IMG/VR virus record: IMGVR_UViG_3300016471_001099 | Span: 32,001-96,000 of that record | Direction: 5' to 3' (one strand) | Length of the DNA: 64,000 nucleotides | Source of the DNA: a virus | Program-made: the position numbers and the translations under genes | Shown here: positions 10,017-57,400 of the stretch, piece by piece | How the letters are laid out: the number at the start of each line of letters is the position of its first letter | Position numbering within the stretch: position 1 is the stretch's first letter | Notes under the pieces: generated by a model | Database searches by the model: none | What the model saw: only the letters and a program-made list of their open reading frames with translations | Told to the model about the DNA's origin: nothing

Positions 10017-13000
10017 ATGACGAACGAACAAGTTTCTCAGGAAGCCGACTACCTCTACAAGTCTTTGAACGCTCAGTTCAACATAGACGAAGCGCAGGGG
10101 ATAGTAGAGGCGTTCGTCGCAGGCATAGGAAACAAGGACTCCGTCGGAGACATATGTCTACCTGGTTGTTTCACGTCGTCGTTGAAGCGCAGAAAACCGA
10201 GAGTGGTTTGGGGTCACGACTGGAACTCCCCGATCGGAAAAGTTCTGGAAATTTACGAGGTGGGCCCCAACGATCCGCGTCTTCCGGCGAAGATGCGCAA
10301 GGCGGGGATAGGCGGGCTCTACGCGCGGGTTCAGTTCAACCTGAAGGCGGAAAAAGGCAAGGAAGCGTTCGCAAACGTGTCGTTCTTCGGAATGGAACAA
10401 GAGTGGTCCATAGGTTACAAAACTCTGGACGCCGTGTTCGATCCGGTTCAGACCGCAAACCTGCTGAAAGAAGTCGAGCTGTACGAAGTGTCGCCCGTTC
10501 TTCACGGCGCCAACCAATTGACGGGGACGATTTCCATAAAGGCCGATTCGGTTGAGGCCGAGACCAAGGAGAAGGCAGCCAGCAAGCCGGTTCTTCGCGA
10601 TCCGAAGGGCGGGTTGACGGCGGCTGGAAGAGCGCACTTCAAGCGAACCGAAGGCGCGAATCTCAAGCCAGGCGTGAAGGGTCCGGCCGACACTCCAGAA
10701 AAAATGCGAAGGAAGGGTTCGTTCCTGACTCGTTTCTTCACCAACCCCAGCGGTCCGATGAAGAAACCGAACGGGGAGCCGACGAGACTCGCCCTTTCCG
10801 CCGCGGCTTGGGGGGAGCCCGTTCCCAAGGACGCGTCCGACGCGGCGAAGTTGGCCGCCAAGGGAAGAAGATTGTTGGAGCGGTACGAAAATACCAAGAA
10901 AAAGAAAAAGGACGATTCCGACTCGGTTGAGAGCAAGAACCACGTCGCGGCGATATACGCGGCGATGACTTCTCCGCAAAACGAAGTTTTCGGTAGGGCT
11001 TCGCAGCTGACCAGGGCGCTGGCAACGAGATTCGGAGGGCCGGTCAGACTCGTCACGGCCGACAACGACATAGCCGTTTTCGAGATGGGCGCCGGCGACT
11101 CGACGGAGACGATGCGCGTCGCGTATCACTACGACGGAGACGAATTCATGTTCGGGACGGCACAAAAAGTCAAACCCGAAACCGTGTACATACCGGTCAA
11201 CGACTCCAACGCCGGGCAAATTCAAAACGGCGTGGCGATGGGCATATCGGCGGTCGAGGACAAGCCGGGATCGCATTGTTGTCCGGGTTGCGCGCACGGA
11301 GGCAACTGCGACGCCACCGTCGCGTTGGGGAACAATGAAAATCCGAAGATCGCGTTCCTGAAGCTCAAGTCGCTCGGCGATCAATTGGACTTCAAGGTCG
11401 TTCCGGTCGACGGAGGATTTGTCCTTCAGGGTTTTGGATTCCTCACCGAGGAAGCACAAAATTACGTCATCGGCAAAATAGAGAACGAACCGGAACAGAA
11501 GTTGCTGAATCCCGTCGGTAGTCTCGCCAGGAGGACGATAGGCGTTCCCAACGCCAGGGCATCGTTCAACATCGATACCAACCCATTCACGGCCAGAGAC
11601 GCGGACTTGGACAAATTGGTCCTCGAGGGAAACCCGCTCGTCAACCTGGGAAGAGGAATTCCCGACCCGACGCCTTTCGGGGCGCCCGACATCCCCGCCG
11701 TTGGGAAACCTGGCGTTCCCGAGCGTTACGTTCCTAACGTGGGCGGAAGAAGACCGATCGCTCCGAGAATGCCGGCGGTTCCCGAGCCTGACGAAATTCC
11801 GGAGCCGGCGAGGGAACCCAATAAGCAACCGAAGCCGGAAAGAACTCCGGTTACTCCGAGAAGGCCGAACAGAGAACCGGTCCCGGCTCCGGCTCCTCCG
11901 GAGAGAGAACCGGTTACCGAACCATCCGTGCCGCAACCCGAAAGAGAACCGGTCCCGGTTCCGAGAAGACCCGAAAGGGAGCCAACGAGGCCTACCGTAC
12001 CCGTTCCGCCGAGAAGACCCGTTCCGGTTGGAAGGGCGAGCAACGAGGACTTCGCAATAGCGGCGATGGGCGGAGGAAGGAGAACTCCGAAAGAACTGGC
12101 CGACGAGTTGGCCCAATTGGATTCGTCCGATCGTCCCAGCAGGCAAACGAGACAGCGCCGCGTCAGGGACGCCGGAATAGATCAAATGCGAAGGTTGGCG
12201 CTCCTTGACGACGCCGAAGCCGGAATGAGCGGACCCTACGGCGAAGGCAGAAAGTACGAAGAAATCGACAGTCTGATAGAGAGCCCCGCGCTCGACGGAG
12301 ATCGAACTCTGCACCTAGACCCAAGCACAGGAAAAATTTACGTCGCCGATCCGATCGAGAGAGAATACCTCTCGTCTAGGTTCGGAAACGATTATTTCCT
12401 GGAAAACGCCTACATGGACGAATGGGACTGGGATGAAATAGACAACGTCGGCTACGACGACATGGGCAACCTCGTAAGAAGGAGTCCGACCGGAGACGAA
12501 ATCATATTCAGCAGGGAACAATTTGGTTCGACCGGAACCGACGCCGGAATGGCGTCTCGCAAGACCTCCAGGAGCGAATCGGCCGATCTCGGAAGAAAGA
12601 TATGGCTGGAAAGAACGCACGACAGAATTTCGCTCGAGGAAGCCGGTAGGCGGAACGGGATAACGAGACAAGAGGCCAGGCAATTGGAGCTTCGTCACCA
12701 AAAATACTTGAGGGATCTCGGCGTCGATCATCCCAACAGAGTTCTTCGTTCGAAGGTGGACGACCCTTCGGTCGGGTTGACCGATGCGGAAAAGGATTTA
12801 TTGCGCAGGAGGCTCGACGGAGAATTGCTCCAGGAGGCCGCCGACCGTCTTCGTACGGACAGATACGCCGTCAGGCGAATGGAGCAACTTGCTCTCGCAA
12901 AAATGAGGAACGGAATGGCTGGGGACGAAACTTCGGCAGGTATGGCCGCTCGTTCCGGGGGCAGGGCGGTAGAAGCCGACCGCCCAAAAGCCCGACGGGC

Positions 13001-16000
13001 CAAAGGGCCCGTAAGCCGAAGAAAAAGAAACGCGGTTGATCCGACCTTTCTCCAAATACTCGATTCGCTGAAGGACAGCGGACCGACGAACATCACGAGC
13101 AGACAAAGAATACGGTTGGCGTCGATGATGCGCCTTCGCACGGCGATCCAAAACAAAATAAATTACATGTTGGCCACCGACGCAAGAAAGAGAAGATTGT
13201 CGAATCTCGGTCCGGAAATAGAGGACCTGAATAAAGGAATACGCGGACCATTCGAATCCCTGGCGGAGGCGGCCAGGCTCGCAACCGGTCGACCGTCGGA
13301 CCTCGTTTCTTCGGTCATGAAGACGGCCAACGGGGATCACGATCCGCTCGATCTGGACGGATCGATAAACGTTCAGGTGTTCGAAGCAATGCTGTCCACG
13401 GGTGGTGACGTGGCCGCCGTGGCGCGCACCATGGGAATGGACGAGGAAGTCGTAAAGATCAGGACAAATGCCCATGCCATGAGAGTTCTAGCTTCGTCGC
13501 GACCGGCGAAGATGAGAATTCACAGGCGAATCGAGGAGATGGGCGACAAACTTACTTCCAAAGAAAAAATCATGTTGCGAATGTGGATAAACGGAGCATC
13601 GAATCTAGACATCGCCGAAAAATTAGGTTCTGGAATGGACGAAAAATCCGTCATATCGTCCAGGTCGGCGGCCTTGAAAAAGATAGGAATAGACGTCGAT
13701 TCACCCGAACTGACCAGCAAGATAGTCAGCGGAAGAATTTTCTACGACGAGCACGGTTTGTTCTTCGGCCTCACCGACGAAGCCGGAAGAACTACGTACA
13801 ACAGAATCGGCGACGGTCCGTCGGCGGGAATGGCGAAAAGATCGACGAGCGTCGTCGAGGCGGATTTCGGCGACGGAAGAAGGGAATACGCGGTATCCAG
13901 GGTCGTAGCCAGGGACAGGTCCTCGGGAAACGAAGAGTCGGTCATGCTGATGCCATTGAGGGGCGACGACGAAACGACCGTTTCCGCCTTGGTTGGCAAG
14001 GCGTTGCTCGGCGACGACTCGCGAGGATTCAATCTCGAATTCCCCGCGACTTTGACGAAGTCCGGCGGCCGAATAGTCGCCGTTTCCGACGGAAGAGGCA
14101 AGGCGGTTCCGTATTACGGGGAAAGAGCGTTCGATCCGGGCGAGCCGGTGGTGATGGACGGTCCGTTGCGTTCCGCCAGGGCGAGGGCCAGAAAAATATC
14201 GGCGCTAAGGGAGAACGATACCGCTTCTCGAATAAAAACAGGTCAAGACGTGATCGGATCGGAGGCGAGATATTCAAATCTCGTCAAAGCCATGGACCGC
14301 TTGGTTTCCACCGGTGACTGGATAGGCGGGGATCTTGGCGTAACAGGAAGGGTTCCCGACGCCGACACGATGCTCAGGTACGGAATAGACGCCGACGTTG
14401 ACGGAAGTCCGATCGTTCCGTCCAACTCCAGCAGGGAGCAATTCGTGCTTCGCCAGGCCGAGTGGTTCCTGGAGAGGAATCCGAACGCCACCGCCGAAGA
14501 ACTCGATTCTTTCGTCGAGCAAGCGAACGAGGCAAGAATCAATCAAATAAGCAGGAAGATCGATTTGGCCGGAAAGGAACTTGCGAGAGTCACCCACGCG
14601 AGGGACTCGATGGAGGCGAGAAGGGCGCAAAACGTCGTGGATCTCGAAACCTTGGATCCCGAGATTGCGAGAGCACTTTCCGCGGAAACGGCCTTCATTT
14701 CCGGCTTGTCGGGAACGGAAATGGATTCCTCCGGGATTTCGCAAGGGGCGGACGGCTTCGTTTACGCGGTCCACAAAGGACCGGACAGACTCGCAGGAGG
14801 AGTACTCGATCCTTCTCGTTCCGTCGGTAGGGCCAGGAATGCGATCGACGTCGCCGGTCAGGGGGATACGAGGGGAGCCAACAGGATATACGTCGACCGT
14901 TTCGTCCAGTCCGCCAACGCCGAGTCGGAGATGGCGAAATTAGCCGACGATCTTTTGGCGTCGGTTTCAAGAGGGGACCGATCGATATCGGTCGCTCCGG
15001 CGATTCGAGCATCTCTAGCTTCGTATTCGCCGCTGATGGCGAGAGTGATGAACGGAGAAGGATACTTCAATTTGGAGAATTTCGACGAGGCAAGAAGATC
15101 CGCGATCGCCCTCGAAATAGGGAAATTCGCGTCGTTGCGGAAAGAACGATCCGAACGCTACGGAAAAATAATGGAGTCGTTGCGCAAGCACGGCGGGAAG
15201 AACATGGACCAGATTCTTTCGGCCGAGGCGGATCCCATATCCGCCCTGCTCTCCACGAATTTTTACGGTAGGTACGCCGACGACGACCTTCCCGAGGACG
15301 TCGTCGCGTTCAAACCGGGTTTCGTGGACAATTTGACTCGTCGTTGGGACCCGCTCGACGAGGAGATGTTGCGACGCTGGGACTCGACCGGATCCCTCAG
15401 GGGTGGCGCATTTTTGACCGTCGGCAGGGAGGATTCCGAAATAGTGAGGGGCGGTCTTCTCGGGCCGACTTCCGAGGCCCAGATAGTCGCCCCGCTCAAG
15501 CCGCTGATAGGTGTTTCCACACCGGTTTCCGTCCTGAGCGACGACAGCGAATCTCGCGCGCTCGTGTCGGCTCTCGGGCCGGCGATAGTTGCGAGAGCCA
15601 TAAAAATGCACAAGCGCGACGGTTTTGTGGACGTTGAAACCGTGCTGACCGACCCCGACTTGGCTCCGTCAGGATTCTCGTACGCCGAAACAGAAGCGGA
15701 GGCCGGAATGGCCGCGTTCGAGCCGCGAAGACCCATACTCGACGAGCGCGGAAGACTCGACCCGGTGCTCACTCGCGACGAGGCGATAGCCGACGACAGG
15801 GACGAAAGGGCAAGCGAAGGAGGCCAGATAGGTCGTCTTCTCGTTCCCCAATCTTCTTCCGTTTTCGTCGAGGCTCCGCCGAACGACCTGACGCCGGAAA
15901 CGAGAAGGGCTCAGTGGGCGGTCGGGTACACGGATTCGGTAGCAGACGTCATGCCGGAGCTCGGATATCCGCAAAGAATGGTTCACGTGGTTTCGCCGTC

Positions 16001-19000
16001 GGCATTGCCGCCCGACAACACCAAATTCCCGGTAGGCGACGAAGGGCAATTGCTTATGCTCGATCAGGAGCCGATAGATTTTCTCGCTCAGGCGTTGAAC
16101 GACGTAAACGGTTTGACGCGTGCCGAAAAAGAGGCGCAAAGAGAGGCGCTGGGCGACAGGGGATTCGATACGGAAGCCGACCCCGACTCGGACTTCACCC
16201 CGATCGAAAGATCACCCATTTATCTAGTAGTGGAAACCGTGAACGAACCCGACCTGCAGGGTCCGGGATACGACGGACGAAGAAGAACGAGAATCGTTCG
16301 CGTTCGCGAGATACCGAGAATGAGATTGTCCATGAGGGCCGACGACGATCAGCCCGGCGGAGGCCCGTATTGGAGAAGCCTGGATGCAGAGGCAGTGGCA
16401 CGGGGAGAGCCCGGGCGAACGACGACGGAAGGTCTCGGATTCTTGGATCTTTTGATAGACGTGGATCCAAATTGGGACGGAGATTTGGTTGACGACACGA
16501 GGGTCGTGCGCGTGAAGCCGGAAAACATCGTCGGCAGAATAGTTTCGGAATCGGAGCTCTGGAATACTTCCAGAATAACCAGGGAAATTTATTTAGGTGA
16601 AGGGGCGCGCACGGCTACGTACCGAAGACCGATCAGTCGTTTCGGGGACGAAACCGAGGCCGGCATGACGACCACGAAGAGAGGAATGGATCTCGTCGCA
16701 AGGACAAATAAATACCGCCCGAGCGAGGACGGAGAATACGTCATACCGGAATCCGTCATGCCCCGCAGGGATCAGGACAGGATGTTCGAGATCGCGCGGA
16801 CGATATCGTCCGGCGAATTCGATCCCCTTGACTGGAGGACCGAGGGAGAACTTGCGGCCCTACTGGAAAAAGCCGAAAACGTATTCCCGATCAAACCGAC
16901 TAGGCGCCATCCGCATCACGACGACGAGAGACTCGGTCGCCTGTACGACGTCACGAGAGCCAGGAACGGCTTCGTGTACCCGCTATACCGAAATAGGGAA
17001 GCGACGATGAACTTCAATTTCGGACAGCTTCTGAGTTTCGATCCGAATACTTCTGTCTACTCCTATTTGGATGGCGTGAATCCGGAGGTTTATTACTTCC
17101 CGGTGCGCATAGGCAGAACGACGTACGGCGCCGACGACTTTTCGTATCACCCTGCCTCGAGAATCGGATACGTCAGATTGATGCAAGACAAAAAAGGTCA
17201 TTACTACGAGATGAGGAAATGGAACCATCCGAACAATTCGGATCCGAATTCGTACGGATCGGCAATAAATTGGACCGACGACGGCGATTCTTTCAAACTA
17301 ATCGAGGAGGAAGGAAAATTCCATCTTTCTCGCAATAAAACCCTGGACGATCGTCTCGGTTTTCTGGGGGATTCGCCGCAAAAAATTCTTGCAGAAATAG
17401 CCAGGAGGGCCCCCACTTACCCCTCTGGGGAAACCTCATTCTGGGATTTGGCGATGAGGGAAACTCCATCCTTCGACGGAGACGGATATCCGACGAGACG
17501 CAGAACCGGTTACGCGGAACTTCCGGGGACTCCGACGGTGACCGAATCCACCGACATGAACGGCTTGCGACTGTTGATCGACGCCGCCAACAGGGACGGG
17601 GTCGGATTGAAACTTTCCGTCGTAGCGGGATTCAGGCCGGGAGAAAAATCGTATTCGAGGGTGACGGACAGCGAAGTGTTCATGCCCAGATTGGCCAGAG
17701 GAGAAATCGATCCGACGACGAGGGAATTCGTATCCGATCCGGACGGGATGGATCATTTGATCGGTTTTGATTCGTCCGGAACTGCGATTGCGCACGAACT
17801 GTCCGAAGTTTTGATGAATAACGAAACGAATCCCTCGTCGCCGAGGAGGTCCGTTGATCACTTCCCTGATTACGAAGACGGCGTAACGGAAGCCGGAATG
17901 TCGGCACCGATAGACAGATACGTCAGGACGACCGAGCCGACCAGGGACGACGAAGGAACTTCCGAGGGACGTCGCGAGGTTCAGATAGTCGATCTTCCGT
18001 CTACCCAATCGGCTAGGAACGGAGGAAATTACGACGACAGCCCCGCCTCGGTGATCGCGGCCGCCGTCGACAAAGTCAGGGCCATGGATTCGGACGCGGG
18101 AGCGGATTTCAACGACGAAAAACACGGACTTACTTTCTCGTACCCGAGCAGCATTAAGGGCACTACCGGGAAAAAGGAACTACGCAATAGAACCCTGATA
18201 AATCCGATAGTCGTTTACGGAGAGTACGACCCGGAGACGAACGAAACCTACATCCTCGCCACGGACGAGACCGGGGTTACGAGGCTCGTTCCGATGTCCA
18301 AAGTCGATTTGAAGGCGATGGTGGCCGGAGATCCGAACGCTGGCGACCATTCCGGAAATCCGGACGTTCAGGACGGAACCTATGCCACGTACGTCGTGGG
18401 CGAAGAAATCGTCGGCGGAAAAACGCAAACCAGAATATTCAATACCGAAAGAATGAAGCCCGTCCTAGGTTCTCCGAGGACGACCAGCGTCGTCGACGAC
18501 CAAGGTGCTCCGACGGGTCGGAGCGAAAGGATCGTTACGCAACCTCGCCCCACAACCACGGACGCGGAATCCGCACCGAGCATAGAAGCCAGCGATTCGG
18601 ACGATCCGTTCTTTTTGCAACACATGGAGCCACCGAGACCCCAGGCTTTCAACGCACAAACGACCATGCCAGTTGGGGATGGGGATGTGCAACTATTCCC
18701 AGGAACCGATAAGCCGACGGCATGGGAGGTGGCGAAAGGATTGGCGGCCGGTGATCCAAAGGCCATACTCGCTCGCAAGGCGGACGAAATGATGCTGTGG
18801 GACAAGATACGAAAAGGGATGCAAAAGTGGTTGAAACCGTGGGGTAAGCACGAATCAAAAATAATAAAGGACGAATCCGGTGCGCCAGTGATAAACCCGG
18901 CGAACGGATTGCCGTTTTATAGGAGCCCCTATAGAAAACCGTGGACTCCGTGGGGAAATCCGCTAGACGAAAACGGAAAAGAACTTTCCGATGGAATTCG

Positions 19001-22000
19001 TGGAGAATTGGACAAAATAAGTGGTTGGCGGGAATTCGGCGAGTGGCTGAAAACCAAGAAACTGGCTTTTTTCGACGTCGAGACGACCGGAATACCGAAC
19101 GGTTCGCTAGAAGCTGGACAAGCCCTGCAGGTCGCAGTGATAATGGTGGAAGACGGGAAGTTCGACAAGCCGAAACGACTCGAGATTTGGATCAATCCCG
19201 GTTCCACCCCGTTGGAACCGTGGGTTGTAAAACACATCAAGTACGACGGAAAAACCATACCCGACGCATTAAGAATGTTTCCGGAAAAATTCGAATCGCC
19301 CGAACAAGCAAAACAGAAAATAGCGGAATTCATAGGCCAAGACGCAGTCGTTTTGTCTCACAATTTTAGAAATTTTGACTCGCGAGTCTGGAGACAGCTG
19401 ATGGGGGATCATCCCACGCTGGGCTGGATTGACACCCTCGCCATAGCCAACTGGATGTTCGCCATAGATAACGAACGAGCAAAAAGCATAAACGCATTGG
19501 AACGCTCGAGCGGAAGATATTCAATGATGAATTGGTTTACGGGCTTGGTAACGATAGATCTTCCCGGGGGAAAGCGATGGGGCTCCAGGGGTAGGAAACC
19601 GGGAGTTCTGGATAGGATCGCCCGCAGAGCCACTGGGCCACTTACTTTCACCCCGGCCCTATCCAAAAAGAAAGCCGTTCCCCAGTGGTATCCAAAGACA
19701 TCTGGTTCGCAATCCAACGAAGCGTTGGCGAAATATTTCGGGATTCCGCAGGTCAAGGCACACGACGCAATGGAAGATGCATCGGTGAGTTTCCGTGCGT
19801 TGTTAGAAATTATCTCCCTCGGGGAAAAATGGGACTCGGCCAGTTTGATGTTTCGTCCGGAATGGGTCAAGTGGGTTCAGTACCAAACGGACGAACAGTA
19901 TGCGGCCGACGTTTCGACGTGGAGAAGGGCAAACGGAATAACCGACGGGCAACGGGAAACGTTGTTCGATTCTGGACCGAGCCAACAAGGGCCGACACCT
20001 CCGCCGGGACCGGGGTCTTCCGGCGGTGGCTCCAATCGGGGACCGTCCTCTGGCGGCGGAGCCGGCGACGACCAAGGTCCTCCGAACGATGGTTCGTGGT
20101 CCACCGGCGGAGATGATCCGGATCGTAGATTTTTGTATCAGACTCCGAGCGGGGTCAAGGTGTTCGAAAGTTACGGCGGTATATATTTCGAACTCACCTC
20201 GGTGTCCCCGTCGGACGGCGCCGAGCAATCCGTATTGGTCGCAAAAACGATATCCGATGCAAGATTGCAAGGATACGGATTCCAATTCCACTACGGAACG
20301 AAATCAAACGGAGAGCCGGCTCGCTACAGGCTCCTCTCGTTGGAGGTTGTTCCGAGGAGCGACGTTACCGAATCTCAGGCGAGACAAATGGGAGTATCCG
20401 GTTGGGAACTTCACGGAATAGACGCAGCCGACGGAAAACTAAAACGTTTTGAATTTTCGCTTTTGAATACGGGTGAGGCCGAAGGCCCAAAGACCAGCAA
20501 TATGACCGAATTGCCGCTTTTCGTTTACGGGGATCCGATTTCTCGCACTTACGGCGTGGTGGGAGACGGTGCGCCAAGAACTCCGCTTCAGTATGCAGAT
20601 TATGCGAGAAGGGTCGCCTACAACAGGGGCAGATCCGACGACGGCCCGTCGGCCGGAATGTCGGGTCTGACCAACAGGGACGGGGTAACCAATTCGACCG
20701 ATTATTGGACGGCCAACGAAAACGACTACGAAATGGTCAGAATGACCGATGCACAACTCGTTTCCAGACTGTCTTCGGACAGGACGAGGTTCGAAAACCT
20801 ATTCCACGCCGGGCCGGGCGAAAACGTTTCGGCATCGAAAGTTCTCGACTCGGTGGCGGCGGCCAACAGGATAATGAGACTAAGGTCGAATGATTCGGTA
20901 GACAACAACGGTTTTACTGTCGCCCTGTCTCGTTCGGGATACAAACTTTCTGGTTCTTTCTCTCCTCCGCCGGGGGTCATGGACGGAAGTTACGTTCTTC
21001 CGTCTTCGTACGTTGCGACGAGGTCGGAGATGGCGAAAAACGCAAAACTTTCCATGATGCTCGATTTTTCTATCGCAAACGGAGGACTAAGAAACGCTGT
21101 AGAAAGGGCGAGCAGATTGTCGAGAATTCCGGCAAGAGAATTGATCGGAAGGATCGCCGCGCACGATTACCCAACCTACGCCGATGAGACCTACTACAGA
21201 AAATTCCGCAACGCATCCGAATTAATATCCGGAGGGACGGAAACCCCGTCTTCGCTCGGACTACTGATAGATCCATCGTCGGATCCGAGAACGGCGGCGA
21301 TACTGACGGATAGAGCGGCGATGATTCTCGGCGTAAATACCCTCGGATATACGGGTGTTTTTGCGAGGGGCGGAAGAAATTATTCGCAAATGGAAACGTC
21401 GGACCTGATGAACGAATTCAACGAATCCGTTTCCGATCTTTTCTCGTTCGATCATTCGGGTAGGTACGAAACGCCGGAATTCAGAATAAAGGCGGATGCC
21501 ACCAGGGATTCGCTGAGAAAAATTTCCGACGAAATGAGAAACAGATATTTCTCCTCGCTTCCCGAGGCGGCGCCGTCGTCTTCGGTTTCGGACGAGGCAG
21601 AAGCGGGCATGAGTTCCGGAAACTCTCCTTTCGGGGAAGCGGACGGACTGCCGATACTCAGCGGTTCAAAGTGGTTGGACGCCCGCCTCCACGCCATATA
21701 CGGGGACGTCGAATACGAGAAACAAGCGGCCAAATTCGGCGACAGATTCAGGACGTTGCCTCAAAGAAACTGGGACTCCCCGACCGACGACGACCTAGTT
21801 GATGTCTACCACTACGCCACGATGCTCCATCACGATGCCCTAATAGAGGAGTTGACCAGAAGAAACGAGAGGTCGGATATGGTCGACTTTGTGTCCAGCG
21901 ACCCGGTGGACAACGGATCTATTGCCGTCATGGACAAAGTGTCGGATTTTTCCGGAGCGCCGAAACAACGCATCGGCGAATTGATTTTGCGCGGCAGGGA

Positions 22001-23753: not shown

Positions 23754-23804
23754 TTATTGTTGTTGCATTTGAATACGAACAATTCTTCTACAATTGGAGA
23801 GATT

Positions 23805-33232: not shown

Positions 33233-33238
33233 TATAAT
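33233..33238 (+). promoter_or_regulatory. Putative -10 element (TATAAT)
   Basis: Perfect hexamer in an AT-rich intergenic gap 50 nt before ATG 33289. Confidence 0.4.
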
Positions 33239-41685: not shown

Positions 41686-41687
41686 TA

Positions 41688-44797: not shown

Positions 44798-45386
44798 CGA
44801 AATGAATACCAAGGCCAATTTGCCTTCGGTGAGCGTTTCTACTGACCCGCTAGGCGGGTTGATACCGCAGGAGATCGTAAGCGGCGACATAATGCGCGGT
44901 TACGGACCTAGGCGAGGAAACTTGGAGCGCTTGCTTCGCTACTGGCGCCCCATCATGAAGAAGCCCGGCGGGTTCAGGAGATGCAGGGTCATTCTTGCCG
45001 ACCACCCAGAACTTTACCCACTGAACAACATCTGCGCCTGGTTGCACCATGAGACGACCGGATTGTGGCCGAACGAGGGTTGTCATCACCCGGGAATGAA
45101 GAACTGCAGGAGAAAACTTCGCGGGGTGGTCAATGGCTCGATTTGGAGCGACTCGGATTTTAACGACAGGCTGAAGAGGGTTACGAGACGCGCGGCCAAG
45201 AAGGACGCAAGGTCGAGCAACGGCATAGACGCCGCTCCTGCCTACGATCCTTTCGTTCCGGTGATAACCGACGACGATTGGGACCACGCTTGGAAGGTGA
45301 TGGACGATTTCGTGAAGATGGAACCAGTTTTCGTTAAGTTCGTTTGCGACGACAATAACTGGGAGATGTTCGACTCTGATGTCTGA
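44787..45386 (+). CDS. Phage head-region protein with a Cys/His motif
   Basis: GNLERLLRYW...PGGFRRC......CAWLHHETTGLWP; I recall this pattern from actinophage head regions. Confidence 0.65.
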   Translation: MQNDEMNTKANLPSVSVSTDPLGGLIPQEIVSGDIMRGYGPRRGNLERLLRYWRPIMKKPGGFRRCRVILADHPELYPLNNICAWLHHETTGLWPNEGCHHPGMKNCRRKLRGVVNGSIWSDSDFNDRLKRVTRRAAKKDARSSNGIDAAPAYDPFVPVITDDDWDHAWKVMDDFVKMEPVFVKFVCDDNNWEMFDSDV

Positions 45387-47472: not shown

Positions 47473-50400
47473 GTCGTATTTTTCGACGGTAGTCGACTCG
47501 GACACCAATACGACTTTTGCCGTGTTGGTGCTCAGCGACGGCGTCGTCACCGCTCACGGATCCATGAAACAGGGAAAGGACTGGGCGGATTGGGTCAACT
47601 CGGGATACAAGTCCCTGCACCAACTCAGCTCATCGCTGGATCCTTCGCTGAAGATGGGCGAATTCGTCCCGCTGACGGAGGAAAACGTCAGATCGGACTA
47701 CTCGTCTTTCGGCCCGACAACCGCCAAGGAACTGATTTCGTTGATAGATACGAAATCCAACGCCGAAACTCGCATCGAAACGAAATCAGATCCGAATGCC
47801 GAACTGTCAACGAAGTCGTCGGAGGCGGCCGACGAGCATCCTTCCGATCGTAGCGTTGAGGACGAGCCGGAATCGGAACCAATCCGGTCTTGGATGATCT
47901 CCGACGTGAGCATAAGTATGTTCGACGTGCAAATGAAACGCGACGCCGTGGACTTCAAGGCCAGGCAATTCGTGCGAAACAATAAATTTGCGTCGTTCGT
48001 TCTTTCGGTAAAAGGATCCAAGGCGAGCGTCGTGTCTGGAAATTGGACGGTCAGGCCGCACGCGTCTAGGGATTTGTCGCAAGTTCTCGAGGGATTCGAC
48101 AGAAAAATAAAAACCAATGCTTTTGCGTTCCTGGACAGAAACGGATACTTCGAAAAGATGGTTCCGATCGGATTTGCGGGTCTCCCCCCGGCGCACATAG
48201 CAAGGGACGCTGACAAAGATTTCAGGGTTTGGGAAGGGTACTCGTGGATAAATAGAGGACAAGGGATACTCGACCCGACCCCCGACGGAGCGATGGGATC
48301 CGCTGCCAGGGGAATGAGATCTTTCGGCGGTCGCCTGGCGAACATATTCGATCAGCCAAATCGCGTCAGGAGAATGACCAGGCGAGACAGGGAAAATTCC
48401 CGCAGAAACGACGCGACGGCCGCGATCAACGACTTAAATCAACTCGTTCCAAAACCGAGCTCCGAAAGGGGCGGAAACAACAGGTTGAAAAACAGACTGT
48501 TGAATCTGGCCGAGGAAGTGTCCGAATTTGTCGACGGAGAAATAACCGCAACCCCGAGAACCAGACGAGAAATTAGAAGATTCGACGAATCTTCGGCGAG
48601 AATTCAAAACGCGGGCGAATACGTTGATTACGACGCAATGGACGAACCTTCCGCCGGCATGAGGCAGATAAGGGGAGACTCCCCCGAAACTCCCCCCGCG
48701 GTCTCCGCCGCCGAGGAGAGATTGACGAAACCAGACAAAGAGATACTTCCCGGAGAAACGGAAACGGTGGCCAGATCGGAGAGGGGGGATTCTCCCAGGG
48801 GAGACGGAAACGGAATGCTCGGGAGGCTGTCGTCTCGCATATCGAGAATAACGAGAAGGATCAATTCGTCCGATAAAAACGTCGTTCCGGAATCGGAAAC
48901 GGAAGAAATAGATCCGCCGAACAACCCGATACCAACCCCCTCAGTCATATCGGACGACCCATGGGTCATGGACGACGCGACCAGGGCCGAACTGGCGTCT
49001 TTGGTTAGGAGTGTCACGCCGATCGGAACGTACGCGACTTTTAGCTCGAGATTCGGCGAGGATGAAATAGATTGGCACGATTTGTCTCCTGCCGAACAAT
49101 CCTCGGTTTCCAAGGAAATAGCTTTCAGGCGCGACGAATTGATTAATATCGTCCAGGAGCTTCTCACCCCGATATTGCCAGGAGACAAGGATTACAGGGT
49201 GGATGGAGTCGTCACTCCGGATTCGGTGAGACAGGCGATAAAAGACAATCACGTTTCGTTGCATCCTGGCGGAGGGAACCTTTACGCCGACGTCGCGTCA
49301 CTGTTGGCGATAGACGATTTCCTCGGAGCCAAGCCGTACGAAGTGGACAGACAATCGTCGGCGTGGAGGTCAATAGACAATAGAAACAGGTCCGTCATAT
49401 CCAAGAGGGCGGATATTCAGAGCAGGGAAATTCGCGATCAAATGTCTCGTAGGGCGCGGGGAACGCTGGGGGAGAGAACGGTGATTTCGCAAGCGGAAAC
49501 CGTGGCGTCGCCGAACGAACCCAGAACTTTAACGCTGAGCAAACTGCAACCACGAAGACTCGTTTTCACGCCTGAAAAACCGAGTGGTCTACGACTCATG
49601 TCCGAATATCAGCAACCCGAACAGGATGCGATACTGGCCAGCGCCGCGGAGATGCGCAAGAGCATCTCCGATTTCCTTCGCGCAAACCTGGGGATTTCGC
49701 AGACCGCGGAGCTTACGGAAGACGTGCTCGCCGATTGGATGTCCAGGTCGTCACCGGAAAACGCGGCCAGAATTCAAAAATACGCCCACAACCTCATAGT
49801 TCTCGACGATTTCTTGGCGGCAAGAGCCGCTGGATTGTCTGGCGATCTGGAATGGAACAACCTAACGCAACCGGCGAGAGAAAGAATACTGGCGAATTCC
49901 AACGTCGTAAAAGCCCCGCAAACCGTCAAAACCACAAAGAGAAAGCCAAGGACTCCGAAAGCCCCCACTCCCGTGGCGCCGAGTGCTCCGCAGCCACCAA
50001 CAACGCCGACCACCACCGATTCGCCAGCGAAACAAAACAAACCGCAGGTGGGAATAGGTCTTTCTCGGGTGGGCGGAAAATTGGGAGATTTGAAAGTGCC
50101 GGATCAGGATTCCGTGTCCACGTTCGACGCAAGCACGCAGACCGTCACGACAACCGCCGAGGACGGAACGCAGGAAACAAAACAATTGAGCTCTTTCGGA
50201 AGGCCGAATCAATACGATTTTTCGAACGGCGTGATGGTGAACGGAGTCGCCTACGTCATGGAAACGAACCTTGGGCTCTACAGAGACCCGATTTCCGGGG
50301 AATATCTCACCGACTATTCGAAAGTACCCATCTCGATAGATACTCAAATAACGCCGGCCGCAGCCTTGGAGCCCGTGCAAACCTCCAAGAAGACCGGGTC

Positions 50401-53008
50401 GATAGTTAGCTATCCGTCGGTGACCCCATTGGCAAAGGACAAAAACAAGCAATACGGATTGACCAGGGACCAATCGATGTCGCAAACGGAAATGTTGTCG
50501 GCGGTATTCGGTCTGGACGCTACCCAAGCGGAGGCGCTGGTCGGATCAAGGATTTACTTCGCCCCGGGCGTCATGCCTGGAAAGTCGACGGATTCGTTCC
50601 GTCAGGCGGCCATGCTCATGTTGCACACGGCGTCACTGACGTCGGCGATACCCGACGCCGAAAAGCAGGATCTCCAGTTGTTGGAACTGGTGGACATCCC
50701 GGAGGGTGCGGATGTAATAGAGACTTACTTAAACCACATAGGAAAACCGGATCTAGCCGTCGCCTATGTAGTCGCCGGAAGACCTTCAAATTTCCTGGAC
50801 ATGGGCGACTCCAGCGCTCGCCAAGGCTTGAACATACCCGTATCCGCATTGGTGCCGACGCACCTAAAGGGCGCCGCTTCGTCGTCCGGGTCAAATTATT
50901 ATTCTCGCCAGGCGCAACTGGTCAGCATATTTGGCGGAGACGACAGCTCCGACAAGAACGGACTCGTCCCCGGAATGAGGTCGGATTCGCAACCAGCCGT
51001 GCGAAAGATGGTTATTGTATGGCGCCACCCGGAAAACTATCCGCGGGATCGTTATAGGTATCGATATGGTTCGGGAAATCTAACCCACATTCAAAGCATT
51101 GCGCAAGCGATAAACAAGGCCTTGGCTTCGGACTCTCCGCAAGATTGGTACGAAGCATTCGAGATGGTCAAAAATGCTTACGAATCGGCCAAAGATGCAC
51201 GCGACGCGGCGTTGAGAAAGTGGAGGGGGGCGGCCGGCGAGAAAAGCAGGACTCCGCGTCCTCGTCGCGAGTTCATATTGAGCGGCGACTTGGTCGAATC
51301 GCTGGAGACGATACTTGCCGACGTGTTCGGTCCCAATATGCACAAAGTAGCGGATTCGGTGAGAAACAAAAAATCGCAGGCGGCGAAAGTCACCAACGAA
51401 ATGGGCAGGCTGCGCAGGCGTGCCCAGCAGACGGGAATACGCAACGTCGCAGGACTGGAGGACGGAATGCTTTCTCCGCCGACGGCGCCCGACGGAAGTC
51501 CACTTGCCCCGAGGGAAGCCCAGCAAATACTTGACATGCTGGAAGCCCATGCGACGCAGGGATTCTTGCCGCACGTTTCGCGAACGATGGCCCCCGGCGA
51601 TCCGTTGGAAATTTCGGATCTTTCGGAGGAAGCGATAAGTACGTTGGCCCTAATAGGCATGTCAGTTGAAAGAATGATAGATCCCGAAACCCAACTTCCT
51701 CTCGCCGAGGTTTATCCGGACATAAGAGGCGGAGTGACGAGAAAACACGCGTTGCACAACGCCATCTACTGGGCGATAGGGGCGAAGGGTCGTCCGATAC
51801 TCGTGTCCGAAGACGAAATGGCGTTGTTGCTCGGTAGTAGTGCGATCCCGGACACGACCACCCCGATCGAGCCAAGAGATTACGTTCCGAACTTCTACCA
51901 AATACGAAGAGGCATAAGCCAGCAAAAAACAGGGAAAACAACCCACCAAATGGCACAGGAATTCATAGACGGAAAACTATTCATTCCATTGGAGGGTGGT
52001 AATGCCGGAGGAAACGGGCACAACTTCGCGAGAACGGGTGCCGGAATGTCTGGGTACGGCGGAAACGATCCTCATGGCGACATCATTCTCGCCGCCGTTC
52101 CGAAAACCGCGCGTTTGGACAACAGGGGCAGAATGGCTACGTTGCAGTCCGAACTGCATGAAATGTTTGGAGCTTTCTTTACTTCCATAACGCTTTTTGC
52201 GGGAATAGAAAAGACAATGCCAATAGATCTCGACGCGACCGACGACCCCGACTGGAGTCACGACAACGCCTCTAATCCGTTTTACAAGAAGGATAGACCG
52301 AACGTCGCCCACGGATATTTCGTTCCGCACGGAGCCCGAACGGTTGGAGCTCACAGGGGTCAATCCAGCGGAGAGGCCCTGTTAAGGAAGGCAAGAGAAA
52401 TGGGCATGTCGATACCGAGGGTGGATACCAGCGATCTGGAATCCATAAGGGATTTAGCAAAAGTAATAATGGCCGTCGCCGAGGAACAGTTCAAAAACAC
52501 GTTCGATTCCGAAGAGACACCAATACCGGGAGATCCCTTCTACGGCGATCAGTGGTGGAGAGCGACGAGGGCGCAAGTGTTCGGATGGATGGTGCAACTG
52601 GAAATACTCAAGGCGATGGAAATGGCCAAACTGAAATCCGAAGGAAAGGTTCCCTGGAGCTCCGAAGTGGCCAATTACGTGATGGCGCAGGAATTGATAT
52701 CGTGGTGGAACGACGAAATAATACAGGCGATGTTGTTCGGCGTTGATGTATATAGCGCCGACAGCTCGATCCCGTTGACGACGAATCCGTTGGTTGCGTT
52801 AAAGGGATACAATATCGGCACGCACATAATGGTCGTAAACCGAACCTCATTGATAGTCCTGAAGAGGCCAGTCACCGAGTCGGCGGAACGAGACATCGCC
52901 GACGCAATAAGAAACCCGCAAATTAGGAAACCCGGAGACCCATCCATGGTGTGGAATCCGTATCGTGGAACGTGGGTCCAAGACCCAGACCAAGGTTCAG
53001 GAGAGTGA
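47462..53008 (+). CDS. 1848-aa multidomain protein with a DPTP module and a C-terminal ART-like domain
   Basis: RDADKDFRVWEGYSWINRGQGILDPTP; EPSAGM; GRPILVSEDE...IRRGIS...EFIDG...GGNAGGNGHNFA...IILAAVPKTARL. Confidence 0.72.
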   Translation: MESKSYFSTVVDSDTNTTFAVLVLSDGVVTAHGSMKQGKDWADWVNSGYKSLHQLSSSLDPSLKMGEFVPLTEENVRSDYSSFGPTTAKELISLIDTKSNAETRIETKSDPNAELSTKSSEAADEHPSDRSVEDEPESEPIRSWMISDVSISMFDVQMKRDAVDFKARQFVRNNKFASFVLSVKGSKASVVSGNWTVRPHASRDLSQVLEGFDRKIKTNAFAFLDRNGYFEKMVPIGFAGLPPAHIARDADKDFRVWEGYSWINRGQGILDPTPDGAMGSAARGMRSFGGRLANIFDQPNRVRRMTRRDRENSRRNDATAAINDLNQLVPKPSSERGGNNRLKNRLLNLAEEVSEFVDGEITATPRTRREIRRFDESSARIQNAGEYVDYDAMDEPSAGMRQIRGDSPETPPAVSAAEERLTKPDKEILPGETETVARSERGDSPRGDGNGMLGRLSSRISRITRRINSSDKNVVPESETEEIDPPNNPIPTPSVISDDPWVMDDATRAELASLVRSVTPIGTYATFSSRFGEDEIDWHDLSPAEQSSVSKEIAFRRDELINIVQELLTPILPGDKDYRVDGVVTPDSVRQAIKDNHVSLHPGGGNLYADVASLLAIDDFLGAKPYEVDRQSSAWRSIDNRNRSVISKRADIQSREIRDQMSRRARGTLGERTVISQAETVASPNEPRTLTLSKLQPRRLVFTPEKPSGLRLMSEYQQPEQDAILASAAEMRKSISDFLRANLGISQTAELTEDVLADWMSRSSPENAARIQKYAHNLIVLDDFLAARAAGLSGDLEWNNLTQPARERILANSNVVKAPQTVKTTKRKPRTPKAPTPVAPSAPQPPTTPTTTDSPAKQNKPQVGIGLSRVGGKLGDLKVPDQDSVSTFDASTQTVTTTAEDGTQETKQLSSFGRPNQYDFSNGVMVNGVAYVMETNLGLYRDPISGEYLTDYSKVPISIDTQITPAAALEPVQTSKKTGSIVSYPSVTPLAKDKNKQYGLTRDQSMSQTEMLSAVFGLDATQAEALVGSRIYFAPGVMPGKSTDSFRQAAMLMLHTASLTSAIPDAEKQDLQLLELVDIPEGADVIETYLNHIGKPDLAVAYVVAGRPSNFLDMGDSSARQGLNIPVSALVPTHLKGAASSSGSNYYSRQAQLVSIFGGDDSSDKNGLVPGMRSDSQPAVRKMVIVWRHPENYPRDRYRYRYGSGNLTHIQSIAQAINKALASDSPQDWYEAFEMVKNAYESAKDARDAALRKWRGAAGEKSRTPRPRREFILSGDLVESLETILADVFGPNMHKVADSVRNKKSQAAKVTNEMGRLRRRAQQTGIRNVAGLEDGMLSPPTAPDGSPLAPREAQQILDMLEAHATQGFLPHVSRTMAPGDPLEISDLSEEAISTLALIGMSVERMIDPETQLPLAEVYPDIRGGVTRKHALHNAIYWAIGAKGRPILVSEDEMALLLGSSAIPDTTTPIEPRDYVPNFYQIRRGISQQKTGKTTHQMAQEFIDGKLFIPLEGGNAGGNGHNFARTGAGMSGYGGNDPHGDIILAAVPKTARLDNRGRMATLQSELHEMFGAFFTSITLFAGIEKTMPIDLDATDDPDWSHDNASNPFYKKDRPNVAHGYFVPHGARTVGAHRGQSSGEALLRKAREMGMSIPRVDTSDLESIRDLAKVIMAVAEEQFKNTFDSEETPIPGDPFYGDQWWRATRAQVFGWMVQLEILKAMEMAKLKSEGKVPWSSEVANYVMAQELISWWNDEIIQAMLFGVDVYSADSSIPLTTNPLVALKGYNIGTHIMVVNRTSLIVLKRPVTESAERDIADAIRNPQIRKPGDPSMVWNPYRGTWVQDPDQGSGE

Positions 53009-53436
53009 AACGAGCGATGACGGACATGCCGGAAATTTCCATCAACGAGCTGGAGCGCGAGGAGTATCTTCAGGATTTCAAATCAGTCGCCGAGGACGCA
53101 AAGTATCCGCCGTTTAGCGTGCCGACCAACGATAAGGAAAACGATTTTTTGCTCAATTTGTCGCGCGAGTACGACGCCTTCGTGACCGGAGAAAAACCGT
53201 ACGACTCATTCGAGGGGTTGCAGAACGAATACGCTGACGAATTAGTCGAATCGAGGGCTTGGAGGTCTTTGGGCTACTCTCCCGAAAAAGCAGCCAAAGA
53301 GGCAATAAGAAAATCGTTGGAACAAGAAGAATATCCCGACACTGTCGCCGAATACTTGGTCGGCAGACAATATGAAACGAACGCAAAAGTAGGGCAGATG
53401 TTCGCCGACGAAATACTTCCATGGGGGGCGACGTGA
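53005..53436 (+). CDS. Acidic hypothetical protein
   Basis: GTG 53005 overlaps the upstream TGA; ATG 53017 is an alternative start. Confidence 0.7.
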   Translation: MKRAMTDMPEISINELEREEYLQDFKSVAEDAKYPPFSVPTNDKENDFLLNLSREYDAFVTGEKPYDSFEGLQNEYADELVESRAWRSLGYSPEKAAKEAIRKSLEQEEYPDTVAEYLVGRQYETNAKVGQMFADEILPWGAT

Positions 53437-54368
53437 AAAAGCAGGCTTCGAGGGAAGAGGTTTTGAAGATCGCCCGTTACATGGGTTGTCGTGGCGCACA
53501 TCAGGACGAATCGGGCAATTGGATGCCTTGCGCGGACATGGAAACTCTGCAGAGATTGTCCTCCGCAGCCGAGAACGACGAATGGTTGGAACAATACGAG
53601 AAAGATTTGTATTCCGGAAATGCGAGTTTCGGAACCTCCGCCGCCAACGTCGACATCAACGGAAGGAAAAAACGGGGAGTGAGGCCGTACGGAATCGAAC
53701 CAGAACCCTTCACGAAGAGCGATTCGTCTGGAAATTACACCAATCCAGGCTTGAGGGAAAGCATAAAGAAACGCATAATGGCCGGATCAAACGGCGGGAA
53801 ACCCGGGCAGTGGTCCGCCAGAAAAGCGCAACTCGTCGCCCAGGAATACAAAAAACGAGGCGGAAAATACAGGGGTAAAAAAACCAAAAAACAAAGATCG
53901 TTGTCCAAGTGGACTTCGGAAAAATGGACCACCTCCGACGGCAAGCCGGCGATCAGGCAGGGAGGCACTAGAAGATACCTTCCGGCAAAAGCTTGGTCCA
54001 AGCTGAGCCCTTCTCAACGGGCTGCCACCAATAAAAAGAAAATAGAGGGAAGCAAACGCGGTCGTCAATTCGTAGCCAACACCGAAGCGGCGGCCAAAGC
54101 AAGGAAAAATTCCGTCAAATCAGCAAGTCCGATAATCGTAAAACAAACCCTGGTGATGCAAAGATTCACCGAGACCGAAGGTCGCGGGCCTGGGCCCAGA
54201 AGAAAAAAACGCGGCAAGCGCTGGGAGAAGCTCGCCGAAAGAGGTCCTGAAAAAATCGTGTCCACGCCCAACTTGGGCCTTACCTCAAAAACTTCGCCGA
54301 GAGATCTCAATAAGGTTGCGACGGAAGTAAAACAAGTATTGACAACTTCTCGTTTTTTGATCAACTAA
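53433..54368 (+). CDS. Basic protein with a GC..H..WMPC module and a DUF5872-like domain
   Basis: GTGA coupling; NYTNPGLRESIKKRIMAGS.GGKPGQWSARKAQL...YLPAKAW. DUF name recalled from memory. Confidence 0.72.
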   Translation: MKKQASREEVLKIARYMGCRGAHQDESGNWMPCADMETLQRLSSAAENDEWLEQYEKDLYSGNASFGTSAANVDINGRKKRGVRPYGIEPEPFTKSDSSGNYTNPGLRESIKKRIMAGSNGGKPGQWSARKAQLVAQEYKKRGGKYRGKKTKKQRSLSKWTSEKWTTSDGKPAIRQGGTRRYLPAKAWSKLSPSQRAATNKKKIEGSKRGRQFVANTEAAAKARKNSVKSASPIIVKQTLVMQRFTETEGRGPGPRRKKRGKRWEKLAERGPEKIVSTPNLGLTSKTSPRDLNKVATEVKQVLTTSRFLIN

Positions 54369-54442: not shown

Positions 54443-57400
54443 ATGGACGACTCAACCGAACAGGGCGATTGTTGCCCTATTTCGCACGAAGACATAGAGA
54501 CCAAAGGCGTCTCCTTCGGAGCGAGACAAGTCAGACCCGACAGTTTTGACGCATACGTTGACAAAGAGTCGGCACGAGCCAGGGCAAGAATGCTCGGGTG
54601 CATCGGCATACGCCAATACAGCTCGACTACTGGCGGAATGGTCTGGATGCCGTGCAGCAACGAATCCGATTACAGGCGCGTGATGGGCCAAAGCGAACTA
54701 GGAAGACGTCAAAGAAGAAGAATGATGAAGGCCGGTTTTTCCGAAAACCAGCAAACCAAGGCCCTCGGCTCCACAATCGGTGCGGTCGGTGGACAAATTA
54801 ACACCGATCCATTTAGCGCAATAGACGCCGACCTTGACGGCTTGGTTCTCGAGGGACTTCCACATATCAACATGGGGCGAGGCGTGCCAGATCCGACTCC
54901 CGGCGGCGCCAGAAGGGACTCCTTCGCCGCGCAAGACGGCAATTTTGCTTTGGCGGCGATGACGAGAGGAAAACCAACGCCGACGACGGAACGCATTTCC
55001 GAACCAAAACTTTTTGAGGTGGGCGAAAGAAACGTTCGACCAAGCCAAGCGACGAGATCAAGAAGAAACGTCGAGGAGGCGGTACGCAATTTTGACAACG
55101 ACGGTTTCGAGGCAATGTGGAGGAACGCAACCGCGGATTTGATCGATTCCGAGTTGTTTGATTTTGACGATGCCGACGCCGCGAAAAATGACTTTATTTC
55201 GGCAATCGAGGACGTTGCCTCTCGGGTGTCGGAAACGGTCGATTCGTCGTTCCGGGCTCCGGACGGACGGCCAGATTCGTCGAGAAGAGTCGCCGACGAC
55301 ACGTCGGCGAGAATTGCGGCGAAGGTTCTTGGTTCCATCGCCGAACTAACAAACAACCCTCCGGAAATTTTCGCCCAGAACGAATCCGTAGCGAGACGAT
55401 TCGCTTCGTCAATGATCGAATCTGGAGCCAAGCGAGTCGCCGAAACTGGTGGCAAGCCAGGCGTCTGGGCATTTTTGATTCAGGCCCTGCTCGGCGGCGC
55501 GATAGGTATTCAGGGCGGATGGGAGTTGCTCGCTCGCATATTCGGCATAGAAAATGGGACGGGATGGATACCGCACCCAACCGGAAGAAGTCTTGAAATT
55601 CTTGCTCCAAGTCTCGCTCGTCAAAGATCGAACGAGTCCCGATCCAGAGCGATGGGGAGAGTACAGAAGGCGCTAGACGCCCTGAGGGCCGCTGGCTTCG
55701 CAATAGGCGAAGCAAGGGAAATCCCCGCCGTGGCCGACGATATGGCGGAAGCTCTGGATGGCGACGGAGTTATCGAATTGCCCGGAGACGTGGTTCCCAC
55801 CGATTCCAGAACTATTTCGTCGTTGGACGAAATGATCAGAAAAATGAGATCCGCTACGGGGGTGACCGATTCGGCGCCTGCTCCGCGTCGCAGAAGGACG
55901 CAAAGACAGTCCGAAACGGCGGATGCCGTAACCAGGAACAGAATGGATTTGGTCGGAATCCCGACTGGAATACTGGACGTATTCAAGACGTCTTCGATGG
56001 AGGACTTGACGGAAGCCGACGCCAAAGCTTCTCGCCTCATAAACGCAGGGGGCACCGACGGAACCGGAAAACTCAACGCCGAACTTCTTTACGACGTGAT
56101 GAAAAATCAATCTTCGTTGCGCAGGTTCGTTGCCCCCGTCGAGTCTGCATACGCGGCTCAACTTGGCGCATTGATAGAAGAGGGGCGTTTGCCGAAGCTG
56201 ACTGACGCAATTCTGGAAATGTCGCCGGAATCAGTTGAAAATTTTCTAGCGGTTAATCCGAGAGCGATAATCAATTCTGCTCGTTCCGCAAAAAAGAAGA
56301 TTCGCCCCAGTGGTTCGTGGATTTCAAGGATAGACCACGATCCTTTCGAAGTGGCGGCCCATATGTTGAGAGCCAAGGACTACCACATTTCGGCGATAGC
56401 GAACGGCTATGACACGCCAAAACTTGCTGACGCCGTTGACGAACTCCTCGGAAACAACGCCTCAGAAACGGCTGCGATTTTCGCATCAATGGTGGCGACG
56501 AACAAGGACAGACTGTCAGAGGCTTACGACGGATCGGTGACGGTCTCTCGTTCGGGAAACAAGCTGCTTGCCACGGCGAGGAACCTCATAGCCAACGCTA
56601 CGGAGAACGACAGCTCGTGGAGTGCGTCACGAACCGCAATATCTGGCGTTTCCGACGCAATGGTTGCGGGCGACGAACCCATGGCTGCGATGGCCAAACA
56701 GGTCGTAAGGTACGGGCGAAATTATCCGAGGCACAGAAGGCGGAGCGGCGATTGGTCTCCGATAGCGAACAAAATACGCGATTCAATTCAGCGCTACAAG
56801 GGCAAATACGGCGCGCCAGCGGCAAACTCCGCCGATCTGGCGCGTTTCGTGGATTTCTCTTATCCGGAATTATTGGATGAAGCAGCCGAACTCGTCGACC
56901 TAATGAAACAAAAAATAGAATTTGGGTCGCTGAAATTTGACGACTACGCAAGCGAAGGCTGGAAAAACCGGGACGTCGCCGAGCTTGCTTTGGACGAATT
57001 CGACCCGACGAATCTTGAATCCATATTCGATCCAGGCAAAAAAATGGGATTGCTCAAGGCCATAGGTGTTGTATTGGCCTCCGCCGCCAAGGTGGCCCCA
57101 TCCAGAAACGAGCAGGAAGGCGTTCTTGATCTTCTCGACGAGGTCAACTCGTGGAGTTTTACCGTCCTTCCGTTGTACTCCGAGCCCAAATCAGTAACGT
57201 CTCGAAAAAGGGGAATATTCCCCTCGGTGACGCAAGACGCCGAAGCAGGCATGACGGTAAACAGACCCGTTCCGATGGACGTTCGGGAGACGCTTGCCGA
57301 ACGACAGGATCCACTCGGCTCCGGTCAAAGACAGGGGCTTCCGCAGATGAGAATGCAAAGAAAATTGATCGAGAGAGCCAATGCGATTCTCTCCGACTCG

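Follow-up and report, generated by a model that had tools for sequence, protein, structure and literature searches.

A conserved acidic motif in the protease protein and giant proteins of a phage head-gene block, a candidate docking label for the prohead interior

The subject of this study is a short acidic motif that recurs in the giant proteins encoded by a 64-kb window of viral DNA (the whole stretch that was analyzed, bases 32001–96000 of a 117,419-bp IMG/VR virus contig, IMGVR_UViG_3300016471_001099, with a CheckV completeness of ~79%). The contig derives from an uncultured phage with a genome of ~150 kb, in which the gene order is TerL, portal-MuF, the giant open reading frame (ORF) A with its protease, ORFs B to K and then the HK97 capsid gene. 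The head-gene block begins with the gene for a portal protein with a C-terminal MuF domain (7713–9935, + strand; Pfam Phage_portal, 3.6e-50, and Phage_Mu_F, 6.7e-10) and continues with ORF A (10017–23753, + strand, 4578 amino acids [aa]), the N-terminus of which (10017–10826, + strand) consists of a prohead serine protease (S78) and DUF6321 (Pfam Peptidase_S78, 5.4e-10; DUF6321, 6.6e-28; phrog_80 head maturation protease, 1.7e-26). Besides A, the motif is carried by ORFs D (27411–33011, 1866 aa), F (41682–44429, 915 aa), I (47462–53008, 1848 aa) and K (start at 54443, running past the window edge to genome position 102177, 5244 aa), all on the + strand.

The motif comprises 32–45 residues and reads h-x-x-x-I-G, a spacer, and [DN]-A-D-x-D-x-x-V-x-E-G-x-P-x-x-N-x-G-R-G-x-x-D-P-T-P, in which the hydrophobic-x-x-x-I-G element (best form KALGxxIG) lies 10–20 residues upstream of the core in the alignment, so that the unit is longer than first drawn. 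Each of the five proteins has a single copy: in A at 11538–11717 (core nt 11580–11675, aa 522–553; hidden Markov model [HMM] score 78.0 bits), directly followed by a Pro-rich linker; in D at 27453–27632 (core nt 27495–27590, aa 29–60; 71.3 bits); in F at 41793–41972 (core nt 41850–41930, aa 57–83; 77.8 bits), with the subtype LPPPHLVRNAD...IYEGIPWINRGRG; in I at 48146–48325 (core nt 48203–48283, aa 248–274; 80.1 bits); and in K at 54764–54943 (core nt 54806–54901, aa 122–153; 75.0 bits), all on the + strand. A preliminary description of this DNA had quoted five peptides from these proteins, and all of them were found in frame in the long + strand ORFs; only the start given for the copy in A, 11582, had to be moved to the first codon at 11580. 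The motif is N-proximal, within the first 13% of each protein, and never terminal. With the profile built from the five copies, these same copies scored 70–80 bits, and the next best match in six frames of the whole 117-kb genome scored 6 bits.

In an all-against-all BLASTP comparison, the motif was the sole region common to A, D, F, I and K (E 1e-3 to 2e-17), and to that extent the carriers are otherwise unrelated, as had been proposed; A, however, shares a ~500-aa domain with the motif-less ORF E (A aa 1431–1877, window 14307–15647; E aa 2314–2763, window 40177–41526; 25% identity, E 1.5e-17), which is the sole similarity among the giants besides the motif. The motif copies are 51–70% identical in DNA, and different codons are used at 8–13 of the 15–25 identical residues per pair (roughly half). 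Since synonymous codons are scrambled and DNA identity is low, we conclude that the copies are of old origin and that selection on the peptide has maintained them; a recent duplication, or an element acting at the DNA or RNA level, was rejected on the same grounds. Across 42 distinct long copies, nine alignment columns are invariant, among them the second and third Asp and the Glu of [DN]-A-D-x-D-x-x-h-x-E-G and the whole of D-P-T-P. In most comparisons of close orthologues, conservation of the motif also exceeds that of the remaining protein, most clearly in D (74–81% identity in the motif vs 40–43% elsewhere), F (88–95% vs 43–46%) and K (81–88% vs 59–63%), whereas a few distant A-type comparisons showed no such excess.

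A short form of the motif was found in two smaller proteins of the same region. In ORF B (23757–25400, 547 aa), KALGATIG, a Gly/Ser spacer and DRDGDGYIFDGTPQEQ (24063–24242, + strand) align by BLASTP with a 724-aa protein, p724, encoded just after the capsid gene and beyond the window, and the form common to both is KALGxxIG...DRDGDGxIFDGTPxEQ. The preliminary description had listed a shorter DRDGDGYIFDGT version at 24156–24195, which is real and lies within this segment of ORF B; as a copy of the motif it is colinear with the long form, including the upstream LGxxIG, yet it scored a non-significant 2.6 bits against the long-motif HMM. Intermediates such as ARDADSDRVVQEGTIHERP and FDPKAWDGDGDGIVQEGTPFQRP bridge the short and long types. 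The five long and both short copies all lie in the portal–capsid head block region on the head-gene strand. The capsid protein belongs to a group of >2600 clusters at E<=1e-10, many with at least 70% identity, from genomes of 125–180 kb; in 80 related capsid loci, a strict short-form pattern gave 33 matches in 30 loci, exclusively on the head-gene strand, mostly in the gene after the capsid gene and in some cases in the gene before it.

When the protease proteins of 11 lineages were aligned, the motif occupied one fixed slot, the order being protease domain, DUF6321, middle domain, motif and, directly after it, the Pro-rich linker. Relatives G008 and G010 have degenerate forms in this slot that keep PDPTP, and the non-giant ~800-aa proteases of G004 and G005, like the protease protein of G006, have a FDGD(S/G)DGF...RDNxPY form there. 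From this fixed position across the 11 aligned proteases, we deduce that the motif is ancestral to the protease protein, and from the ancestral slot together with the copies on the giants that it was elaborated and reused on cargo proteins in the clade of the window. The middle domain also contains a Cys-rich patch, HCCPGCxxGGxCD (A aa ~495–515, window 11500–11560), which is present at homologous positions in relatives and expanded in G004 and G005 to CGCGGxCGG...CGGSCGGSC, and which may be a metal cluster site.

Outside this genome, the long motif occurs only in giant ORFs of a single phage clade. A degenerate-pattern scan of IMG/VR returned 44 loci on ~30 contigs, always in ORFs of 850 to >3900 aa, and the motif positions fell into classes that match the orthologues (A, ~525–590; D/F, ~25–90; K, ~115–150; I, ~220–300). 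Five related whole records, of which two are complete and have terminal repeats, contain 2–5 copies each, and every one of these lies between the portal and capsid genes. An exhaustive profile search of 1.84 billion cluster-representative proteins gave 37 strong matches (54–84 bits), 35 of them proteins of 850–6391 aa and two short exceptions of 220 and 496 aa, and the motif lies no further than ~580 aa into the sequence; among these strong matches there was no annotated cellular or non-phage family. The wide distribution among non-virion proteins that the preliminary description had named as refuting its reading was thus not observed. When the profile was broadened to take in the short forms, all matches again came from this phage group. 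In 50,697 cultured phage records, tblastn gave no match to the long motif (E up to 1), to ORF B or to the two short-form segments, and when solved structures were searched with a profile, the sole match, to an aminotransferase loop INxGxGxPDxPTP (E 0.21), was attributable to chance.

The comparison also took in cultured actinophages. A putative DGDGDG...ERP motif of actinophage head proteins does not occur in the head modules of either Streptomyces phage Gilgamesh or Gordonia phage GMA6. Gilgamesh, a cultured siphophage with a related portal-MuF fusion, has in the same portal–capsid slot a 4624-aa hypothetical protein, gp48 (L062:2979-16853). As a counterpart of the giants gp48 was rejected: it is non-homologous, is without the motif and begins with a NPALHPRDSKGRF-type element.

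The remaining genes of the region complete this picture. The large terminase gene is on the minus strand (window 6147–7457), and upstream of it, also on the minus strand (374–2433), a gene resembling 3'-phosphoadenosine 5'-phosphosulfate reductase (phrog_2302, 4.7e-73) adjoins a ParB-like nuclease gene (phrog_723, 3.4e-35). A tail sheath gene lies upstream on the opposite strand, which identifies the contig as a myophage. Between the portal and capsid genes, the head module holds ~60 kb of mostly unannotated giant genes, including, besides those described above, ORFs C (25608–27398, 596 aa), E (33238–41685, 2815 aa), G (44787–45386, 199 aa), H (45379–47472, 697 aa) and J (53421–54368, 315 aa). 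Recognizable domains in the giants are few: a DnaQ-like exonuclease inside A (aa 3011–3159, window 19047–19493; phrog_192, 1.4e-13), helix-turn-helix domains in A and D, and a NUDIX hydrolase with a minor-head-protein-like region near the C-terminus of K (aa 4718–4840; L009:14594-14962). A DUF3721 Cys/His element (GCxGxH...WMPC) occurs in J (aa 12–40, window 53454–53540) and, upstream of the motif, in K (aa 40–74, 54560–54664; Pfam match in K), and twice in a 384-aa short-motif protein of genome G010 (L148:14570-15721); its occurrence with the motif in both K and the G010 protein makes the combination a recurring architecture. The HK97-type major capsid gene itself (genome 102453–103844; phrog_10, 1.3e-62) encodes a protein whose Phage_capsid domain is preceded by a conserved, probably helical N-terminal region of ~100 aa that is similar to a scaffold-like delta domain.

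Downstream of the motif, the tripeptide A-[AG]-M recurs as a candidate cut site. The first such site is A-A-M in A (12060–12068, context FAIAAMGG, a candidate protease cut site conserved in close relatives), in D (27642–27650, NFAVAAMSG, 18 aa downstream), in F (42060–42068, GPMAAMAD) and in K (54953–54961, NFALAAMTR, 18 aa downstream), and A-G-M in I (48653–48661, DEPSAGMRQ, 124 aa downstream), all on the + strand, and thus lies 18–129 aa past the motif in all five proteins. The Met positions of AAM sites named in the preliminary description (12066, 27648, 42066, 54959 and 56690) are all correct, and the FA(I/V/L)AAM form is conserved in close relatives. A[AG]M is strongly enriched in the giants: it was counted 14 times in A and 15 times in K (2–3 expected), four times in D, four in E and three in I, where 1–3 are expected overall, and five times in the remaining 15,461 residues of the genome; the capsid protein has none, and in some relatives GAM is enriched instead. 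In ORFs A, D, E, F, H, I and K, an acidic-x-(E/S/D)-A-G-M-(S/A/T/G) context recurs (window 12216–62311 and beyond), and it has the appearance of a cleavage site for the fused protease.

The reading that we favour, while giving it somewhat less than an even chance, is that the motif is a docking label for the prohead interior, which brings the protease and giant cargo into the assembling head. A short and probably disordered acidic linear motif would thereby address proteins to the inside of the prohead. It would derive from the prohead protease's own targeting region, ancestral in this phage group, and its role in the protease protein would correspond to that of the C-terminal targeting tail of other prohead proteases. 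Four more giant proteins of the window's clade, multi-domain and of the polyvalent type, would have received the same element close to their N-terminus, and two smaller head-module proteins its short form. All carriers could then share one docking site, which might be the scaffold-like N-terminal region of the capsid protein, the portal-MuF protein or a core protein. A divalent cation may be bound by the [DN]-x-D-x-D-x-x-h-x-E-G half. Cleavage by the fused protease at A-[AG]-M would follow in this genome and its close relatives, at a first site 18–129 aa past the motif, and would separate the motif-bearing leader from the cargo. The preliminary description had proposed a capsid-targeting or sorting tag on cargo; every copy in this genome and in the five related records does lie in the head-gene block, and in one clade, but the motif is not restricted to cargo, as it sits in the protease as well and, as the short form, in smaller head-module proteins.

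Several observations weigh against this reading. We infer the place of the motif-bearing proteins in the virion, or inside the head, from gene order alone, and the protease domain in A might be targeted by other means. Known N-terminal targeting peptides differ from the motif in position, as it lies up to 527 aa into the protein (29–522 aa in the comparison with the T4 signal). Its link with cleavage is incomplete in both directions. ORFs E (2815 aa, four AGM sites) and H (one AGM site) lack the motif, from which it follows that not every putative protease substrate needs it; conversely, B and p724 have the short motif and distant relatives keep the long one, with A[AG]M absent from B and p724 and none after the long motif in those relatives, and removal of the motif by cleavage can thus not be general. 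The proposal that the tag is cut off after use is therefore narrowed: as judged from sequence, removal of a motif-bearing leader is plausible for this genome and its close relatives only, and it is not a defining property of the motif. Finally, the short form matches EF-hand_5 with 10.9 bits, under the cut-off of 25.9.

The same sites underlie one alternative, in which the motif would be a protease-recruitment element that binds the S78 protease or DUF6321 of A and brings polyprotein substrates to the enzyme, not to the capsid shell or core. A[AG]M sites are most numerous in the five proteins that have a long copy, the enzyme's own coding sequence heads the same block, and in D and K the first site follows close behind the motif, all of which would be expected from such an element. 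We nevertheless regard it as unlikely, since protein A carries the motif itself, AGM sites occur in E and H, which are devoid of it, and the motif is found with no AGM site in B and p724 and no A[AG]M after it in distant relatives.

The physical character of the motif bears on a second alternative. Its acidic core has a net charge of about −2 and its flanks of about +3, and the 40 residues downstream are rich in Arg and Pro. AlphaFold2 with the 42-sequence alignment modelled the ligand-free motif with no regular secondary structure (predicted local distance difference test score [pLDDT] 54.6, low confidence), which fits a short linear motif that may fold on a partner or a metal ion. A model of A residues 1–700 from the 11-row alignment was poor throughout (mean pLDDT 44) and says little on the packing of the motif against the protease, and the complex predicted for the capsid protein (443 aa) and the 60-aa motif from 42-row alignments had a score of 0.00, which gives no answer and speaks neither for nor against binding. 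The motif has the acidic loop positions 1, 3 and 5 and the distal Glu/Asp, near position 10, of EF-hand or Excalibur DxDxDG loops, and below the score gap of the profile search only repetitive EF-hand, Excalibur and FG-GAP-type proteins appeared, at 36–41 bits and aligned over the D-x-D-x-D half. Unlike such loops, the motif stays under all Pfam thresholds, no flanking helices are predicted, Gly6 is unconserved in the long form, and the NxGRGxxDPTP C-terminal half has no counterpart in them. Neither EF-hand nor Excalibur was matched in Pfam searches of the whole proteins, and 60-aa segments of the long form gave nothing; the Ca binding that had been suggested as possible thus comes down to a sub-threshold likeness.

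According to this second alternative, the motif would be a metal-dependent switch or hinge with no addressing role, a Ca/Mg loop that keeps the giants extended or compact, or that sets the moment at which they leave through the portal and tail during ejection. The [DN]-x-D-x-D-x-x-h-x-E-G pattern, the weak matches outside the clade over just this half, the sub-threshold EF-hand matches of the short form and the unstructured ligand-free model are all in keeping with it. It is, however, improbable in our view: no Ca-binding family of Pfam reaches threshold, conservation in the long form does not extend to the Gly at loop position 6, and neither the equally invariant N-x-G-R-G-x-x-D-P-T-P half nor the single N-proximal copy per protein is explained.

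A third alternative, which is compatible with a docking role, is that the Asp/Asn-rich motif is a modification site, the substrate of a protein resembling 2-oxoglutarate/Fe(II)-dependent Asp/Asn beta-hydroxylases. A 173-aa ORF of this kind lies between the capsid gene and p724 (genome 103920–104441; PF05118, 4.7e-15) with its H-x-D and distal His intact; about 30 of the 80 related capsid loci have a homologue at this position, directly upstream of the short-motif protein wherever both were mapped. On the other hand, of 10 related genomes that are complete (at least 90%) and have motif forms, 6 lack PF05118, among them G004 with its two long copies, and the Asp-to-aromatic spacing does not appear to fit the consensus of epidermal growth factor-type substrates. 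Since the family is missing from 6 of the 10 motif-bearing relatives, hydroxylation of the motif is possible and cannot be essential, and as the explanation of the motif we rate it lower than either alternative above. Self-processing, in which the invariant Asp-Pro bond of DPTP, beside the cation-binding loop, would be cut autocatalytically in the manner of the Ca-dependent Asp-Pro 'clip-and-link' modules of RTX proteins, is very unlikely indeed: D-P-T-P is invariant in the 42 long copies and kept in the degenerate slot forms of G008 and G010, but the short forms have no Asp-Pro, the search of solved structures showed no similarity to self-processing modules, and the motif is far shorter than those that are known.

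Returning to the docking label, its furthest extension joins several of these strands. The dockerin is a functional analogy for docking through a Ca loop, and by the same logic the motif could be a cation-dependent docking peptide used across a group of uncultured myophages of ~140–175 kb, where it would take into the prohead the protease, smaller head-module proteins and as many as five giant polyvalent polyproteins (>14,000 residues per set); in some lineages its Asp/Asn might be beta-hydroxylated by the capsid-adjacent oxygenase, and it would be a portable address label. In this full form we consider the proposal a long shot. The characterized packaging signals, those of T4, P1 and SPN3US, are few and share no recognizable consensus, and as a result cargo is unpredictable from sequence, whereas here one conserved motif marks the protease and several giants in a large, abundant environmental phage group with head modules inflated by 23–60 kb of mostly unannotated genes. 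If the docking reading is true, it would provide a sequence rule for packaged cargo in metagenomes, explain the loading of megadalton polyproteins and make available a portable tag with which HK97-type capsids could be loaded with proteins.

Several known systems invite comparison. Prohead proteases can carry a C-terminal region that probably brings the enzyme into the prohead, as in the tail of HK97 gp4. Like this tail and that of SPN3US gp245, the motif is C-terminal to the S78 domain in every aligned protease protein; unlike them, it is separated from the protease fold by ~340 aa (DUF6321 and the middle domain), is followed by a Pro-rich linker and then up to 3900 aa of cargo, and is reused on other proteins. 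In T4 and SPN3US, targeting elements of this general kind are the capsid-targeting sequence (CTS) on IPI-III and Alt, the N-terminal propeptides of the SPN3US ejection proteins and the C-terminal propeptide of the SPN3US protease, gp245 (PMC7411985). The motif resembles the CTS and the SPN3US propeptides in being a short element on several proteins that would be head-internal and are encoded or assembled with the head, and in having downstream of it a prohead-protease site, here a candidate one, through which the leader could be removed. The analogy with the T4 CTS made in the preliminary description does not extend to sequence or position, as the two have no sequence relation and the CTS is 10–20 aa at the extreme N-terminus whereas the motif is a 32–45-aa acidic element at an internal, N-proximal place; unlike the elements of T4 and SPN3US, it is also present inside the protease protein and, as the short form, in proteins that have no candidate cut sites.

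The giants of this window share with the polyvalent proteins of phages and conjugative elements, for which packaging and injection are predicted, a very large size and a place among portal–terminase head genes (PMC5512222). Polyvalent proteins are made up of multiple domains; in the giants a DnaQ-like exonuclease, NUDIX and helix-turn-helix modules are seen, and most of the sequence has no recognizable domain. The portions of that paper covered here describe no shared addressing motif, and in this window the protease is fused to one of the giants. A precedent for the loading of a giant protein is P1 DarB, a 250 kDa multi-domain antirestriction protein that is sent into the capsid by an N-terminal 30-aa signal, for which the authors found no consensus among the N-termini of the Dar proteins (PMC9024508). 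In contrast to P1, one recognizable motif is present here on five to seven proteins, and it is conserved across many genomes.

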